64,000 nucleotides of DNA from a candidate division WOR-3 bacterium 4484_18 (GTDB lineage Bacteria; Hydrothermota; UBA3073; NMUJ01). The position numbers were made by a program, and so were the translations under genes. Below the pieces are notes generated by a model that made no database searches, was not told where the DNA came from, and saw only the letters and a list, made by a program, of their open reading frames with translations. Location: NCBI GenBank assembly GCA_002256535.1, contig NMUJ01000007.1, positions 3,648 to 67,647 of the forward strand. The letters run 5' to 3'. Below, one piece after another: positions 290-7,301 of the stretch; the stretch's first letter is position 1; the number at the start of each line of letters is the position of its first letter.

Positions 290-2352
290 TTTGTAACCGC
301 GAGCTTACCCCGTACCCAACGTCCATCAGCCAACTTAACAACAACTTGATATACCCCCACCGGTATAGTATCTAACCCCTTTACATGTATTATTGGGGAA
401 TCACCCTGTCCAGCAACAGAATATATTAACCTTCCACTCAACGTGTATAGATACATGGTTTGCCACACGTAAGGGGTGACAATCGTCAACGTACTGTGTT
501 TACCCACAACAAAAGGATTAGGATATATTTCAACTTTCGTAACCTCCCAGGTTGGTGACAACGTAACCTTTGATATACCCCCACGTGTGGGTATCCATAT
601 TGAAAACCTCTCATTATCCCATACGATATCACGTGTGAAGTCCACATATTCCGAAGCCACCAACCCATCACCTGTTGTGTAATTGATGAGCTCACCCGAA
701 CTTGGGTTAAGTACACTCACACCCTGCATGTTAACCAGCATCCAGATTCTACCTTCCCAATCTTCCTCCAATGCCAGTATGTCATTGCTCGGTAGCTCAC
801 TATTAGTTGAGCTATATTCATCAATCACCCTACCATCCCTTATCCGGAATACACCCGCACGTGTAGCCACCCATATATCACCAGCCCTATCACATATGAT
901 GTCCGTAACCCATGTAGTAGGTAGTAGGTCACTCAGTACTTCAAGCTCCCCATCTTTATGTATGCATGCAATACCATACATGTGGCTACCTACCCACACA
1001 TTTCCATAGCAATCTTTGGCAAACGCACCGGGTGTAACAAATTGCCACGTGTTGATAACTGAATCATCCGCAATCTCAAAGATATATCCACCATTTGTAC
1101 CCACCCACAGGTGATCATTTGCATCCACGTACATACCCCAAACTATATTTGAGCCACTACCCGGTAAATAGAACTTTTTTAAGGAATCGCCCCTCGGTAT
1201 GTATTTTACTAACCCTACATCACCACCCCAAAAGCTTATCCATAAATTACCTTTACTATCACTCACGATATACCTTGCACGCTTAATTGCAGCTTCCCCC
1301 TCAAGATAATGCGCATAATACCATTTACCCTTTACCTCATATATTCGGGTGATAGCAGGCTCCCATGCCGTAAAATGTACCGCCCATATGTCACCGTTGG
1401 GGCTCAACGCTATACTGCTTGTGATATTGCTTACCATCGATGTGGGGAAACTATCCTTCAACAACGTATCCGTTGTCCAAGCTACCAACCCACATCTGAA
1501 GCTACCCACCCACACCACGCTATCTAAAATTATCAAACGACCCTGCCCCCTCGGTGCATAAAGTAACGGCGTAAGTGATGGCCACCATGTACCGTTCCAC
1601 TTTTTAACCCCCCACCTCGTAGAAGCTAACAGCAAGGTATCACCCTTACAGAAATCGAGCACCCCCGGATATGCATTCACAAGTTGCGAACTTCCCCTTA
1701 CATACATCACTATTCCAGAGTCTGTACCTATCCACAAGGTATCTTTACACCACTCTAATGCCGTAATCCCAGCTTCCCTAACTTCACCCGGTAGCTCCGT
1801 CTTTGGTATCACATGCCAGCTGTTACCTTCAACATCCGTTATACCGATACCGTCTTCTGTACAGAACCACAACGAACCGTCATGATAATAAACACGTAAT
1901 ACTTTGTTACCCAACGCTACAGGTAGATTCCAATAGCTTATCCTCTCAATATTAGATAGGTTAGCAGTAAGCTCTAATACCGTGACAGGTGCATCATCCT
2001 CAGTAGCTATCCACACTTTTCTACCTACTACTACTATTGAAGAGAACCTGTCACTTTGTGGTAACCCCTGTGCGTTCGTGTAACTGTACGATATACCATG
2101 CGTGAATATTACCAACCCCTTACTACGTGTAAGACACCACACCCCAACCGAATCCACAAATATATCCTGTACGTTATTTTCGGTGAGCCCATCCACATTT
2201 GTTAAACGTTGTAACCCATCCGTATCAGGGTCATAAATTACCACACCACCCTCAGTTGCCGCATAAATACAAGGTTCGTAATAAAAAATATCATTCACTT
2301 TATAAGTAGATAGGAAGCTCTCCCAGACGATCCCCAATACAAACAATATCAT
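286..2352 (-). CDS. Secreted beta-propeller repeat protein with a C-terminal T9SS-type (Por secretion) sorting domain
   Basis: 688 aa with an N-terminal hydrophobic signal-like segment. It carries repeated W/G-rich propeller-like blades (WIGT, WVGT, WFCTEDG motifs) as in two-component-regulator propeller / Y_Y_Y repeat proteins. The last ~80 aa (IYPNPFVVGKHSTLTI...VYQVVVKLADGRWVRGKLAVTK) match the T9SS CTD / FlgD-Ig-like pattern. Confidence 0.5.
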   Translation of the reverse strand: MILFVLGIVWESFLSTYKVNDIFYYEPCIYAATEGGVVIYDPDTDGLQRLTNVDGLTENNVQDIFVDSVGVWCLTRSKGLVIFTHGISYSYTNAQGLPQSDRFSSIVVVGRKVWIATEDDAPVTVLELTANLSNIERISYWNLPVALGNKVLRVYYHDGSLWFCTEDGIGITDVEGNSWHVIPKTELPGEVREAGITALEWCKDTLWIGTDSGIVMYVRGSSQLVNAYPGVLDFCKGDTLLLASTRWGVKKWNGTWWPSLTPLLYAPRGQGRLIILDSVVWVGSFRCGLVAWTTDTLLKDSFPTSMVSNITSSIALSPNGDIWAVHFTAWEPAITRIYEVKGKWYYAHYLEGEAAIKRARYIVSDSKGNLWISFWGGDVGLVKYIPRGDSLKKFYLPGSGSNIVWGMYVDANDHLWVGTNGGYIFEIADDSVINTWQFVTPGAFAKDCYGNVWVGSHMYGIACIHKDGELEVLSDLLPTTWVTDIICDRAGDIWVATRAGVFRIRDGRVIDEYSSTNSELPSNDILALEEDWEGRIWMLVNMQGVSVLNPSSGELINYTTGDGLVASEYVDFTRDIVWDNERFSIWIPTRGGISKVTLSPTWEVTKVEIYPNPFVVGKHSTLTIVTPYVWQTMYLYTLSGRLIYSVAGQGDSPIIHVKGLDTIPVGVYQVVVKLADGRWVRGKLAVTK

Positions 2353-2741
2353 TTACCTACCCTGTTACGTATGAATTCTATCACCTGCTCTTTATTATCA
2401 CTAAACCTCACGTACATACCACGAAAGTTTTCCAACCTGTTGGGTTCATCAAACGGGCTAAGCAATACACCATATTTATCAACATAGTAGCTCTTGATCG
2501 ACTCCCAGCGCTTGAATTGTGTCACAAAGAACCCCTTTTTATAGACACCCCTGTCATCCATCACATAGGTGGTTGGCAAAAAATACGACAATATATTTAC
2601 AACAACCAAAAACGTACCAAATAATGTCCACCACACTCCCCACGTATAGTAAAGACCGACCGCCAAAACCACAATAAAAGCTATTAAATACGCTGTTTTA
2701 CGTGGCTCCTCCTTAGCGGGTAACGACCGCCATTCTATCAT
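2349..2741 (-). CDS. Small hypothetical membrane protein
   Basis: 130 aa with two hydrophobic helices (LIAFIVVLAVGLYY, LFGTFLVVVNILSYF) followed by a soluble tail. It overlaps the upstream and downstream genes by 4 nt each, which looks operon-like. No recognisable family. Confidence 0.35.
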   Translation of the reverse strand: MIEWRSLPAKEEPRKTAYLIAFIVVLAVGLYYTWGVWWTLFGTFLVVVNILSYFLPTTYVMDDRGVYKKGFFVTQFKRWESIKSYYVDKYGVLLSPFDEPNRLENFRGMYVRFSDNKEQVIEFIRNRVGK

Positions 2742-3844
2742 AACTTAAGTTTATCAAACTCAGGTTTCAACATCCCATAGATTTTATCGAGTGCCGCTGA
2801 TACCACCTTTGTATCACCAATCACTGGCATAAAGTTGGTATCCCCCAACCACCTTGGCACAATATGCACATGTATATGGTCGACCACACCCGCACCTGCC
2901 ACTTTACCCACATTTATACCGATGTTGAACCCATGGGGATGCATCACCTTACGCAATATCTCCACAGAGGCTTGCACCAAACGCCCAACCTCCACCAGCT
3001 CTTCTGTAGTCAACTCTCTCAGTTCACCTATGTGACGTGTAGGTGCTACCATCAAATGTCCGTTATTATAAGGGAAGATATTCATGACAACAAAAGCCCA
3101 TTCACTACAATACAGTACATAGCTTTTGCCCATATTTTTGAGCGCCTCACAAAATATGCATCCCCCCTTACGTGGCCCCGTTATATACTCTACACGCCAA
3201 GGTGCCCACAACCTATGTGGTGCAGTTGTCAACAGCTTTTCAGTTGTCTTAAAATGTAACTTCGCCACCCTACCCAATGCGTGTTCACCCTTTGTTAAAA
3301 CAAATTCCTTACCTACCAGCTCCACTTCTGTAGAGGCACCCTTGGGTAACACCACACCTTCGCTTTCCGATAATTTATTTAGTTGCTCCAAAAATGTAGC
3401 ACGTGCCAAAAGTGACGCCAGCATCACCGCAAGCTCCTCCTCCCCATGTGGATGTATCACCAACGGTACCTCTTTCGGGAAATACGTTTTTATAAAATCT
3501 GGATCCGCAAACTGATCTATCACTATACGGTCGCAACTACCTACACTGTTAAGTAGCTTCATCACAACCCTACTATGTAGCCATGCCAAGATATGGTTGA
3601 GATTAGGTGTCCTACTATAGAGCTTATTGTATTCCGTAGGCGCCAGATAGCATATCTCATGTACACACAAATTTTTAATCTCTTCGCTCAAGTATATAGC
3701 TTGTGCATCGGTTACCTTTTTGCTCTCCTTTATCGGTAATTTCTCCAGTTCTGGTAGCTTCTCGTCATCCAAAAATACTGCCGCAACTGCTAATCCACCA
3801 AAATAGTCTCCCTTACCAGCTTCGTCGCTACCTATCCACCTCAT
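2738..3844 (-). CDS. RNase HIII/HII-like nuclease domain fused to a HIT-family (HxHxHxx) nucleotide hydrolase domain
   Basis: The N-terminal ~200 aa contain IGSDEAGKGDYFGGLAVAAV, the RNase HIII-type DE(A/S)GKGDYFGP catalytic motif. The C-terminal ~165 aa contain LWAPWRVEYI...CIFC...HIHVHIVPRW, an Ap4A-hydrolase-like HIT domain with the histidine triad. It is a single uninterrupted 368-aa ORF. Confidence 0.6.
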   Translation of the reverse strand: MRWIGSDEAGKGDYFGGLAVAAVFLDDEKLPELEKLPIKESKKVTDAQAIYLSEEIKNLCVHEICYLAPTEYNKLYSRTPNLNHILAWLHSRVVMKLLNSVGSCDRIVIDQFADPDFIKTYFPKEVPLVIHPHGEEELAVMLASLLARATFLEQLNKLSESEGVVLPKGASTEVELVGKEFVLTKGEHALGRVAKLHFKTTEKLLTTAPHRLWAPWRVEYITGPRKGGCIFCEALKNMGKSYVLYCSEWAFVVMNIFPYNNGHLMVAPTRHIGELRELTTEELVEVGRLVQASVEILRKVMHPHGFNIGINVGKVAGAGVVDHIHVHIVPRWLGDTNFMPVIGDTKVVSAALDKIYGMLKPEFDKLKL

Positions 3845-6022
3845 TTTGTAACTATGTTTATAAGCTTTTTAGGTACCACGATGATACGTTTCACCTGCTT
3901 ACCCATAATATGTTGCCGTATTTTGGGATGTTCCAGTGCCATCTTACGTATATCGTCTTCTGTCACATCAAACGATACCTGCAGACGTGCCCTAAGCTTA
4001 CCATCAACCTGCACCGGTATCTCAATTTCTGGTAGGTATACTTTCCCTGGATCATACTGAGGCCAACTTGCGTGGAAAATAGATCCCTCACCTCCAATCT
4101 TATGCCATAACTCTTCCGCCAAATACGGTGCAAATGGTGCGATCAGCTTCACCAACGTATAAAGCCCATAACCGAGCGTCTCGTCCTTCCCAGACTTATA
4201 GAATTCATTGACAAGTTCCATCAATGTCGCTATCGCAGTATTATAGTGGAAATGTTCAATATCCTCCGTAACCTTCTTTATCGTGTAGTTAATCCTACGC
4301 AATAATATACTATCATTAGCTGGTACATTCTCCGTGATTATATCGGTGTTCTCCGTCACAATCCTATAGACTCGGTCAAGGAACCGCCGTGCACCTTCAA
4401 CTACACGTTCGCTCCATATACCTTCTTTTTCCGGTGGCCCCAGAAACAGCACCCCCACACGTGCAACGTCTGCACCCACCAAATATTTCGTTATCGTTAT
4501 GTGGATCGGTATATCGCAGTTGATACCAAGACGAATCCACGAACGTATCCATCGTATCAGGGTCACGCTTTGCATCCCCTCCACACTGTGGACACTTTGT
4601 ATTTATAAATTCAGGTACCGACTCAAGTGGCGATTTACCTTTAGGAGCGTAATCTACCACTTCAGGTAATTTCACCGGCAACTCTTCCTCCGGTACAGGT
4701 ACCACACCACAACGTGGACAATGTACCATAGGGATTGGTGCACCCCAATAACGTTGCCTCGACACAAGCCAATCCCTAAGATGGAATTGCACCTCCCCAC
4801 CACCCAACCCCATCACCTTGAGCTCATCCGCCACTGCCCAAATACCATCTTCAGATGTAAGCCCCGTAAATTTATCAGATTCTACCATCACCCCATACTC
4901 TTCATAAGCTTTATCGAGCGGTTCACTTAATTCACCATCTACGGGTTTAATCACTACCTTTATCGGTAAGCCATACTTTTTAGCAAACTCAAAATCACGT
5001 TGATCATGTGCAGGTACACCCATTACGATACCTGTCCCGTACGTAGCAAGCACATAATCACATACATAGATCGGAATACGTTCACCCGTAAACGGATGTA
5101 CCGCATATAGGCCTGTGAATACCCCAGTCTTTTCGCGTTCACGTGATGTACGCTCTATTTCCGAAATCCTAAGCGACCTCTCGATATATTGGTGAACCTC
5201 CTCGCTTAAGGGTAAGCCCTCCAATATCTCATGTTCTGGTGCTATCGCAATAAATGTTACCCCAAACACAGTATCAGCACGCGTTGTAAACACCGGTAAC
5301 TGTTTATCGAACTCTGGTAGCTTAAACACGATACGTACACCCTCGCTCTTGCCGAGCCAATTTCGTTGCAGGTTTATCACCTCATCAGGCCATTTACCTT
5401 CGAGATACTTCAGGTCATCCAGCAACCTCTCCGCATATGCGGTAATTTTGAAGAACCATTGGGTTAACTTACGTTTAACCACAAGGCTGCTACAACGCCA
5501 ACATTTGCCATCACTTACCTGTTCGTTAGCTAACACTGTCTGACACCTTGGGCACCAGTTCACATATGCAGGTTTACGATAGGCCAACCCTCTCTTGTAA
5601 AGTAGAAGGAATATCCATTGCGTCCATTTGTAGTACTCCGGTTCGCACGTCAGCACCTCACGTGTCCAATCATAACTTATACCCATGAGTCGATAGCTTT
5701 CACGTGATATCTCGATATTCTTCATTGTCCAATCTCTTGGGTGTATACCATGCCGTATTGCTGCATTCTCTGCGGGTAGGCCAAACGCATCCCAACCCAC
5801 CGGATGCAACACCTGATACCCCTGCATCATTTTATACCGGGTTAGCACATCACCCAACACATAGTTACGTAGATGCCCTATGTGTAAGTCACCTGATGGA
5901 TACGCGAACATCTCCAGTACGTAGAATTTTCTGGCCGGATCCGGTCTATCCGTAGTTCTATAAATACCCTGGGTCTCCCACCACTTACGCCATCTATCCT
6001 CTATTTCATGAATCGGGTACAT
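3841..6022 (-). pseudogene. leuS: Leucyl-tRNA synthetase, disrupted by an internal deletion of ~105 codons (losing the KMSKS region) plus a frameshift near 4486-4490
   Basis: ORF 4397..6022 encodes the LeuRS N-terminus (HIGH motif as PSGDLHIGHLRNY, editing domain, DTFVDSSWYQLRY). ORF 3841..4584 encodes the C-terminus (YLVGADVARVGVLFLGPPEKEG...KLRARL). Manual translation shows the frames join at gataacgaaatatttggtggg. Only ~10 codons separate SSWYQLRY from GADVAR, versus ~125 in E. coli LeuRS, and no KMSKS is present in any frame. Confidence 0.7.
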
Positions 6023-6696: not shown

Positions 6697-7301
6697 TTAC
6701 CGAGATATGCAGCAATAGCTATAAGGGCTTCCCTGTTCCACAAGGTTTTTGGCCAACAATAGCGATTGATAAATAGCAGGTGCTACCTTACGTTCTTCCT
6801 CAGTAAGATATTCGTTTCTTGAGCTCATCGCCAGTCCATCTGGTTCACGTACGGTGGGCCCCACGATTATTTTGACGGGAAAGTTAAGGTCACGCACCAT
6901 CCGTTTTATTATTATTGCCTGTTGTGCATCTTTCTCACCAAATACTGCAATATCTGGCATAACGATATTGACTTCACCTCGACATATGTGGTAAACCCCT
7001 TAGGATACAGGTCATCAACCGATGGGTAAAACATTATATCTACCCCCATCTTCTCAAGTATCTCTTTGTCACGCTTAATATCCCTGGGATATCTATCGTA
7101 ATCTTCACTTGGTCCAAACTGAATGGGGTTGACAAATATACTCACAACCACAATATCAGCATGCTTGCGTGCTATATTTATAAGAGAAGTATGTCCCTCA
7201 TGCAGATACCCCATAGTGGGTACGAACCCCACCGTCTTACCCCGTCTTTTATATTCAAGCGATAGTCGCTGCATATCTTCTAACCGTGTCACGATCCTCA
7301 T
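6697..7301 (-). pseudogene. panC: Pantoate--beta-alanine ligase, disrupted by an internal deletion of ~26 codons plus a frameshift around 6960-6975
   Basis: ORF 6912..7301 encodes the PanC N-terminus ([18 protein letters not shown]). ORF 6697..6960 encodes the C-terminus ([13 protein letters not shown]...AMSSRN). Only ~17 nt separate YVEV from [10 protein letters not shown], versus ~32 codons in E. coli PanC. The conserved RPGHFRGV segment is absent in all frames. Confidence 0.65.

Follow-up and report, generated by a model that had tools for sequence, protein, structure and literature searches.

Ribonuclease HIII (RNase HIII, the product of rnhC) is a well-known bacterial type 2 RNase H, represented structurally by the proteins of Geobacillus stearothermophilus (2D0A), Thermovibrio ammonificans (4PY5) and Aquifex aeolicus (3VN5). 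Its action on hybrids is type-1-like, and single embedded ribonucleotides are cut only with Mn2+ (PMC9719913). A hallmark of RNase HIII is an N-terminal TBP-like hybrid-binding domain (N-domain) of ~70-85 amino acids (aa), which reviews give as a defining feature of the enzyme. Among enzymes with the equally well-known histidine triad (HIT) domain, the solved relatives that matter here are diadenosine tetraphosphate (Ap4A) phosphorylases, which act on free Ap4A (PMC7705103); they include Rv2613c (3ANO/3WO5) and its M. avium counterpart (6AF2). Here we describe a gene that joins the two families in a single polypeptide. It lies in a stretch of 64,000 nucleotides (hereafter the window) from the candidate division WOR-3 bacterium 4484_18, corresponding to positions 3,648 to 67,647 of the forward strand of contig NMUJ01000007.1. 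The encoded protein has the catalytic fold of RNase HIII and lacks the hallmark N-domain, carrying a HIT domain appended C-terminally instead. The protein is real and under constraint; each of its two domains has a complete set of catalytic residues, for RNase HIII and HIT chemistry respectively, and a flexible linker connects them.

A preliminary description of the window, made from the sequence alone, had proposed that an RNase HIII-type half and a HIT half are contained in one polypeptide. Our results bear this out: one open reading frame (ORF) of 368 aa is matched by both domains, and all of the motifs quoted at that time are in place, namely GSDEAGKGDYFG (aa 5-16), LWAPWRVEYI (aa 212-221), CIFC (aa 229-232) and HIHVHIV (aa 323-329). 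The protein is already deposited (OYV03376.1, P0123 in our protein set) under the title "ribonuclease HIII" from candidate division bacterium WOR-3 4484_18. Its features in the window are as follows.

2738..3844, minus strand: fusion ORF, 368 aa plus stop codon, the same as NCBI OYV03376.1 / UniRef100_A0A257LWN7 (100% identity)
3230..3844, minus strand: RNase HIII catalytic domain, aa 1-205, without N-terminal TBP-like domain (Pfam PF01351, TIGR00716, alignment with Bst RNase HIII residues 94-306, Foldseek)
3821..3826, minus strand: catalytic D7-E8 (Bst D97-E98) within GSDEAGKGDYFG; Bst alignment, invariant
3515..3517, minus strand: catalytic D110 (Bst D202); Bst alignment, invariant
3440..3442, minus strand: catalytic E135 (Bst E232); Bst alignment, invariant
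3212..3244, minus strand: inter-domain linker, approximately aa 201-211, short in this protein (alignment; low model confidence, pLDDT)
2741..3214, minus strand: HIT domain of the Rv2613c/Ap4A-phosphorylase-like subfamily, aa 211-368 (Pfam, NCBIfam, PDB, Foldseek)
3194..3211, minus strand: LWAPWR motif, aa 212-217, the N-terminal signature of the HIT subfamily (RLWTPYR in Rv2613c)
2858..2878, minus strand: histidine triad HIHVHIV, aa 323-329, with H325 as the presumed nucleophile (sequence; invariant)

The assignment of the N-terminal half to RNase HIII is consistent across methods. The Pfam family RNase_HII (PF01351) spans aa 4-201 (E 3e-30), and the NCBIfam rnhC equivalog TIGR00716 scores 170.2 bits, above its cutoff of 161.2, whereas the NCBIfam models of RNase HII score far under their own cutoffs. 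In the PDB sequence search aa 4-211 are aligned by residues 94-309 of Bst RNase HIII (E 3e-28), and the same enzyme (3asm) is the best Foldseek target for the nuclease half of the AlphaFold2 model, the root mean square deviation being 2.2 Å over 220 columns. Besides the catalytic site, the fusion and RNase HIII have in common the G(K/T)GD motif, the Tyr/His phosphate pocket and the C-terminal helical extension. Residues D7, E8, D110, E135, Y76 and H197 are invariant in the alignment of 21 fusion proteins, and so are H323, H325 and H327 of the HIT half. It had been suggested that completeness be judged by a catalytic DEDD set; the catalytic residues are indeed complete, but the set is the D-E-D-E of RNase HIII and not the DEDD of RNase HII. 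As for substrate binding (residue roles according to PMC4132731), Y76 aligns to Tyr147 of the DNA-phosphate pocket of the Thermovibrio enzyme and D13 to its 2'-OH-binding Glu84, a position that is likewise Asp in Bst RNase HIII. H197 corresponds to Thermovibrio His263 by motif position (KLHF) only, the 4PY5 alignment stopping short of H197.

The match to TIGR00716 takes up profile positions 84-284 only and therefore starts after ~83 N-terminal positions, that is, the TBP-like domain is missing. In agreement with this, Pfam finds no match in the fusion protein to PF11858/DUF3378, the TBP-like substrate-binding domain of ~70-85 aa. The start codon of the fusion shares the sequence ATGA (3841-3844) with the stop codon of leuS, so that there is no room upstream for coding of a lost N-domain: the DNA 5' of the fusion is leuS coding sequence, and the ORF begins six residues ahead of the catalytic Asp. 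Homologous fusions likewise begin 3-6 residues ahead of the catalytic D-E. The initial impression that the nuclease part is about 100 aa shorter than usual was correct; the missing piece is the N-terminal substrate-binding domain, and the remaining domains are full length. The closest stand-alone RNases HIII are mostly metagenomic proteins 205-250 aa long, in which the D-E motif falls in the first 30 residues. Because these relatives are overwhelmingly of the short form, the N-domain was probably lost before the fusion event.

The C-terminal half is equally well defined. Pfam places the HIT domain at aa 241-331 (E 2.7e-15), and in the PDB sequence search aa 210-364 are covered by the Ap4A phosphorylases 6af2 and 3ano at E values of 1e-32 to 1e-34. 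Identity of the HIT half to Rv2613c and 6AF2 is 36-42% over ~125-140 columns. Fold matches found by Foldseek comprise Rv2613c, which is the best target, Fhit and Hint proteins. Rv2613c and the fusion have in common a true HxHxHxx triad, the RLW-P-R motif, an Asn (N139/N311) and the PRW-GD-NF tail; in both, the spacing from this Asn to the triad is one residue longer than in Hint/Fhit. The mycobacterial chain before RLW (3ANO residues before ~44, part of which may be an expression tag) has no counterpart in the fusion, where the nuclease and the linker occupy this place. We take H325 to be the nucleophile by analogy with H96 of Fhit and H112 of HINT1. When the HIT half was compared with 46 stand-alone homologues, the same ~34 residues turned out to be at least 95% conserved in both sets, and neither fusion-specific conserved substitutions nor extra positive charge of note were seen against these homologues. 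Members of the HIT subfamily occur in other fusions as well, including CYTH-HIT (P0144, P0026-P0053), HIT-NUDIX (P0179, P0208) and tandem HIT (P0138) proteins.

The linker between the two halves varies from ~10 to ~100 residues among homologues and is long and of low complexity in two of them (P0016, P0019). The AlphaFold2 model, built on 21 homologues, has a mean predicted local distance difference test (pLDDT) score of 84 and a predicted template modelling score (pTM) of 0.57; pLDDT drops below 50 at aa 208-215 and is mostly above 90 in the nuclease. As modelled, the protein is a pair of rigid domains on a flexible tether. No solved structure spanning both halves is present among the Foldseek matches.

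The preliminary description had also raised the possibility of an artefact, in which adjacent rnhC and hit genes were joined in frame by an assembly error or by a deletion in the window; alternatively, the gene might be decaying. There are some grounds for such suspicion, since leuS and panC are split in the window by three deletions that a 98%-identical strain does not have. The deletion at ~4480 in leuS removes ~238 bp (L088 7127-7364) and leaves ORFs 4397-6022 and 3841-4584. The other two lie in or beside panC, one at ~6731-6740 (~119 bp, with 10-bp microhomology; L088 4746-4864) and one at ~6971 (76 bp; L088 4429-4504), and leave ORFs 6697-6960 and 6912-7301. Because an essential gene is split, these deletions are probably errors in the assembly of the metagenome-derived genome rather than biology. 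Fragmentation of essential genes is not peculiar to the window assembly, as the pheT region of L088 (12688-14288) is called as four fragments of 177, 116, 72 and 158 aa. Decay is exemplified by locus L093 (3339-5636; Candidatus Stahlbacteria, JACQXS010000061), in which the fusion gene is truly disrupted at its 5' end by an inserted YhcG/DUF1016 (PD-(D/E)XK-type) gene (3428-4546). There, ~40 codons at the start, the catalytic D-E among them, are replaced and the remaining ~360 codons stay in frame; the NCBI annotation has only a 209-aa 'HIT domain-containing protein'.

Against this stands the fusion ORF itself. Contigs were compared via P0134, a protein near-identical to that of the window. In L088, a 97-98% identical contig from another sample, 4480 bp that include the ORF align without a single gap, and the same is true of L083. 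Both contigs encode the same 368-aa fusion with an intact leuS (806 aa) directly upstream; panC is intact in L088, and L083 ends before it. The 90%-identity cluster of the protein has 30 members from many assemblies and samples, 14 of the 15 listed being 368 aa long and one a 243-aa partial sequence. Searching other genomes for the architecture, as had been proposed earlier, showed that it recurs in ~20 further clusters (44-92% identity) with more than 100 invariant columns over both halves. The linker varies across the clusters at 44-55% identity, and a recent in-frame deletion therefore cannot explain the fusion. Finally, in a comparison with a relative of 92% identity, the ratio of nonsynonymous to synonymous substitution rates (dN/dS, Nei-Gojobori) is 0.06 in the nuclease half and 0.23 in the HIT half, far under 1 in each case, which indicates that both are under purifying selection. 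The gap-free strain alignment, the exact NCBI protein, the recurrent architecture and the low dN/dS together refute an artefactual join, and the probability that we are dealing with an artefact or a decaying gene is negligible.

The RNase HIII-HIT architecture is rare and narrowly distributed, being confined to a WOR-3/'Candidatus Stahlbacteria' clade. An exhaustive HMMER search of 1.84 billion representatives clustered at 50% identity returned a sole match to both halves (P0002), the other top matches being single-domain proteins, and those members that bear a name belong to assemblies of WOR-3 and 'Candidatus Stahlbacteria'. The names given in databases cover one half of the protein, either 'ribonuclease HIII' or 'HIT domain-containing protein'; two entries with the latter name (P0121, P0021) are internal-start calls of the fusion gene. 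In the library of papers searched, none pairs RNase HIII (or ribonuclease HIII) with a HIT domain or histidine triad. The domain architecture is new, although the enzyme families that it combines are both well known and its members already stand in databases under half-names.

Genomic context was analyzed using at least 80 stand-alone HIT loci from species-representative genomes; the scan patterns were derived from HIT only and returned no fusion loci. The genes next to the fusion and the related loci are the following.

3841..6022, minus strand: leuS, upstream of the fusion and given for context only; split by the ~238-bp deletion at ~4480, with the stop codon overlapping the fusion start
2349..2741, minus strand: 130-aa protein whose N-terminal part has two apparently hydrophobic segments, putative transmembrane helices, downstream of the fusion; the ATGA overlap represents translational coupling
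Genes for a ~130-aa protein of this kind (mem130) at other loci: L001 1085-1489; L003 6168-6620; L072 5234-5629; L081 9171-9581; L082 10251-10652
Spans of adjacent endonuclease Q (endoQ) and HIT genes: L003 4464-6181; L052 4689-6492; L072 3461-5231; L081 6699-9140; L089 4440-7149; L002 2344-4040; L007 4931-6627; L077 6001-7664

The stop codon of the fusion shares ATGA (2738-2741) with the start of the gene for the 130-aa protein, to which no Pfam or NCBIfam family could be assigned. In WOR-3, Stahlbacteria and Cloacimonadota its gene is a conserved companion 3' of the HIT gene, whether the latter is fused or stands alone; hit followed by mem130 without any nuclease is seen in L001, L003 and L072. 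Another recurrent neighbor of stand-alone HIT genes is a ~410-aa TIGR00375 protein, encoded upstream in L003, L052 and L072 and downstream in L002, L007 and L077. It is a homolog of endonuclease Q, as judged from matches to the Pyrococcus structures (PDB 5ZB8/7K30; E 1e-60). Overall, the endoQ-HIT adjacency is found at no fewer than eight loci from WOR-3, Cloacimonadota, Omnitrophota and unclassified bacteria, on the same strand, mostly at most 62 nt apart and in both gene orders. In two fusion lineages (L081; L089/L090) the order is endoQ, fusion, mem130. We found no description of the endoQ-HIT association, the literature not having been searched for it specifically. EndoQ nicks DNA 5' of deoxyuridine (dU), deoxyinosine (dI) and apurinic/apyrimidinic (AP) sites (PMC4858679, PMC4357722). 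Additional HIT loci, at least six, have mutS as a neighbor, and ruvB and recA are found near the fusion in other lineages. Taken together, the endoQ, mutS, ruvB and recA context points to DNA repair. The HIT subfamily also neighbors genes for dGTPase-like HD, Metallophos_2 and EF-G-like proteins; these neighbors, the NUDIX and CYTH fusions and the characterized relatives that use free Ap4A point to small-nucleotide metabolism.

Several candidate links were considered and rejected. No neighboring rnhC and hit genes are seen outside the clade: tblastn with the nuclease half gave no match within 6 kb at the 80 stand-alone HIT loci listed. In two related loci (L086, L087) a gene for a 114-aa Hint-type HIT protein is located ~5 kb from a short RNase HIII gene, beyond dnaG-rpoD; we regard this as a coincidence, given that the HIT subfamily is different and the two loci are related to each other. 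EndoQ-HIT fusion proteins were absent from the best 120 EndoQ homologs. A protein joining a LigA domain-Ia fragment to HIT (P0212), which might have provided a link to DNA ligase, has a Gly/Arg/Pro-rich join and appears to be an out-of-frame read-through of a truncated ligA.

Some further observations concern RNase HIII and the window in general. Short-form RNases HIII include P0143, P0028 and P0037, and the copies in L086 and L087 adjoin a Zn-ribbon/CT398 gene, rpoD and dnaG. In a set of 585-790-aa proteins the RNase HIII catalytic domain is C-terminal (P0147, P0157, P0180, P0210, P0226, P0264 and P0270), and N-terminal to it are repeats of the RnlA-toxin-like/DUF3378 kind or, alternatively, a protease domain (Lon_C); in one protein the nuclease is followed by TPR repeats. 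The 64-kb window is strand-skewed (15637 C against 12120 G on the plus strand; 43% G+C), and in its first 8.8 kb every long ORF with a recognizable gene is on the minus strand.

The explanation we favor, with moderate confidence, is that selection has preserved the fusion as a genuine bifunctional protein within a narrow clade of WOR-3/Stahlbacteria. Its N-terminal half is a short-form RNase HIII without the N-domain, whose cutting of single embedded ribonucleotides is expected to be weak at best and to occur with Mn2+, and its C-terminal half is an ordinary Rv2613c-like HIT domain on a flexible tether. Going by family knowledge, the latter should cleave nucleoside-5'-phosphoryl anhydride bonds through a covalent intermediate of H325 with a nucleoside monophosphate; the substrates of characterized relatives are dinucleoside polyphosphates such as Ap4A, cleaved by phosphorolysis, which turns Ap4A into ADP and ATP. 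As the simplest history, a short rnhC inserted ahead of hit, and merged with it, in an older cluster consisting of endoQ, hit and the small-membrane-protein gene. This origin is suggested because hit-mem130 exists without the nuclease, endoQ adjoins hit, and the order endoQ, fusion, mem130 is observed. HIT domains are obligate dimers, and the fusion would therefore be a two-headed nuclease, in which avidity might partly offset the loss of the substrate-binding N-domain. The fusion might tie hybrid removal stoichiometrically to the clearance of nucleotide adducts or alarmones within the same damage-repair module. We consider a free or small HIT substrate (NpnN) somewhat more likely than nucleotidylated nucleic-acid ends. 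If the substrate is indeed free, the fusion would provide co-expression or co-localization only, possibly linked to damage signaling.

A number of observations weigh against this explanation. The best HIT-subfamily model, NF052622 (ATP adenylyltransferase/Ap4A phosphorylase, EC 2.7.7.53), scores only 138 bits against a cutoff of 290. N139, G146 and S147 of Rv2613c were reportedly implicated in its phosphorylase activity by Mori et al. in 2011. The Asn is kept (N311), but A318/G319 replace G146/S147, in at least 95% of the subfamily, S147 being the position mutated in structure 3WO5; consequently, neither phosphorolysis versus hydrolysis nor the substrate can be read from the sequence. Dimerization through HIT is probable by analogy with the family. 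What lies upstream of the fusion is not fixed, with leuS in the window, ruvB at L091 and a TPR gene at L082, so that the endoQ link fails in some lineages, including that of the window, which has no endoQ within its 64 kb. In the RNases HIII that have been studied, loss of the N-domain lowers substrate binding and in vivo function (PMC4132731), and the level of activity of the nuclease half is accordingly uncertain.

The earlier idea that the pairing couples incision to deadenylation leads to a different view, in which the HIT half would act on nucleic-acid ends, removing 5'-AMP after abortive ligation at the 5'-phosphate nicks made by RNase HIII or EndoQ or, in a variant, a pyrophosphate-linked Np(n) cap from hybrid RNA. 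The nuclease domain would then supply the nucleic-acid binding that a zinc finger gives aprataxin. The adjacency of the HIT subfamily to endoQ, which is seen across several phyla and includes two fusion lineages, speaks for such a role, as do the six further loci with mutS and the nicks that EndoQ leaves 5' of dU, dI and AP sites. HIT chemistry with its His-AMP intermediate suits deadenylation, and a tether would keep the HIT site near the freshly cut 5' end. Yet the fusion has neither a zinc finger, no family of this kind being matched, nor another DNA-binding element, and there is no aprataxin structure among the best 50 fold matches. Moreover, its HIT domain is indistinguishable from stand-alone homologs that have no nucleic-acid-binding partner, the characterized relatives use free Ap4A, and nicking at single ribonucleotides is not chiefly the work of RNase HIII. 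Nor is the expected genomic association seen, either as RNase HIII genes at the 80 stand-alone HIT loci listed or as fusions among the best EndoQ homologs. On balance, we think that a role on nucleic-acid ends is possible but rather unlikely. Its extension to the whole subfamily, namely that Rv2613c-like HIT proteins are the missing prokaryotic counterpart of aprataxin and clean AMP or Np(n) caps off endonuclease nicks, is put forward tentatively and with no less doubt. A prokaryotic 5'-end cleaner would account for both the endoQ operons in several phyla and the RNase HIII fusion, in which the nuclease domain would make the nick and dock the HIT site onto it.

Another possibility is that two unrelated housekeeping enzymes, one for hybrid removal and one for Ap4A/NpnN clearance, were joined by a chance rearrangement and have been kept because the product is harmless and co-expressed, with no cooperation between the halves and no relevance of the HIT dimer. 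The restriction of the architecture to one 50%-identity cluster would fit, and so would the unstructured linker of variable length, the lack of rnhC and hit as neighbors outside the clade and a HIT neighborhood that differs widely between phyla (EF-G, Metallophos_2, HD, LapA). This is difficult to reconcile with a fusion kept down to ~45% identity with both halves constrained and located in or beside repair genes (endoQ, ruvB, recA) in several lineages. Furthermore, for a nuclease without its own substrate-binding domain, compensation by the partner is plausible. A fusion of pure convenience thus seems improbable to us, and a selectively maintained bifunctional protein remains our preferred explanation.

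To our knowledge, no aprataxin-equivalent 5'-deadenylase has been described in bacteria. Abortive ligation at nicks that are damaged or contain RNA should nevertheless happen in bacteria too. A concrete and testable candidate for such an activity is the HIT enzyme that one clade has joined to RNase HIII and that several phyla encode beside endoQ. Should the HIT half do no more than clear nucleotides of the Ap4A type, it still holds that RNase HIII is widespread without its hallmark N-domain and that its architecture can be remade by appending a different module. In uncultured thermophilic lineages, moreover, DNA-repair operons have a link to an enzyme of alarmone or nucleotide-adduct metabolism.

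Among known systems, aprataxin (APTX/Hnt3) has in common with the fusion the HIT fold and the histidine triad, as well as a conceptual link to nicks arising from RNase H-type and base excision repair-type incision (PMC6043908). Its C2H2/C2HE zinc finger, FHA domain and N-terminal helical wedge are absent from the fusion, whose C-terminus can be aligned over its full length with proteins of the Rv2613c type; both sequence and fold group the HIT half with Rv2613c/Fhit-like proteins and not with aprataxin. A precedent for fusing an RNase H to a phosphoryl-transfer enzyme is M. tuberculosis Rv2228c, in which RNase HI is joined to a CobC-type acid phosphatase. In that case, the nuclease is a type 1 RNase H and the partner a histidine phosphatase, so there is no homology to the fusion in either architecture or partner. 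NitFhit of worms and flies (1EMS, which appears among the PDB matches of the HIT half) is a HIT dinucleoside-polyphosphate enzyme fused to an unrelated nitrilase-family enzyme, the two being separate elsewhere. The partner domain and the domain order differ from those of the RNase HIII-HIT protein, and in NitFhit the functional link between the halves is likewise indirect.

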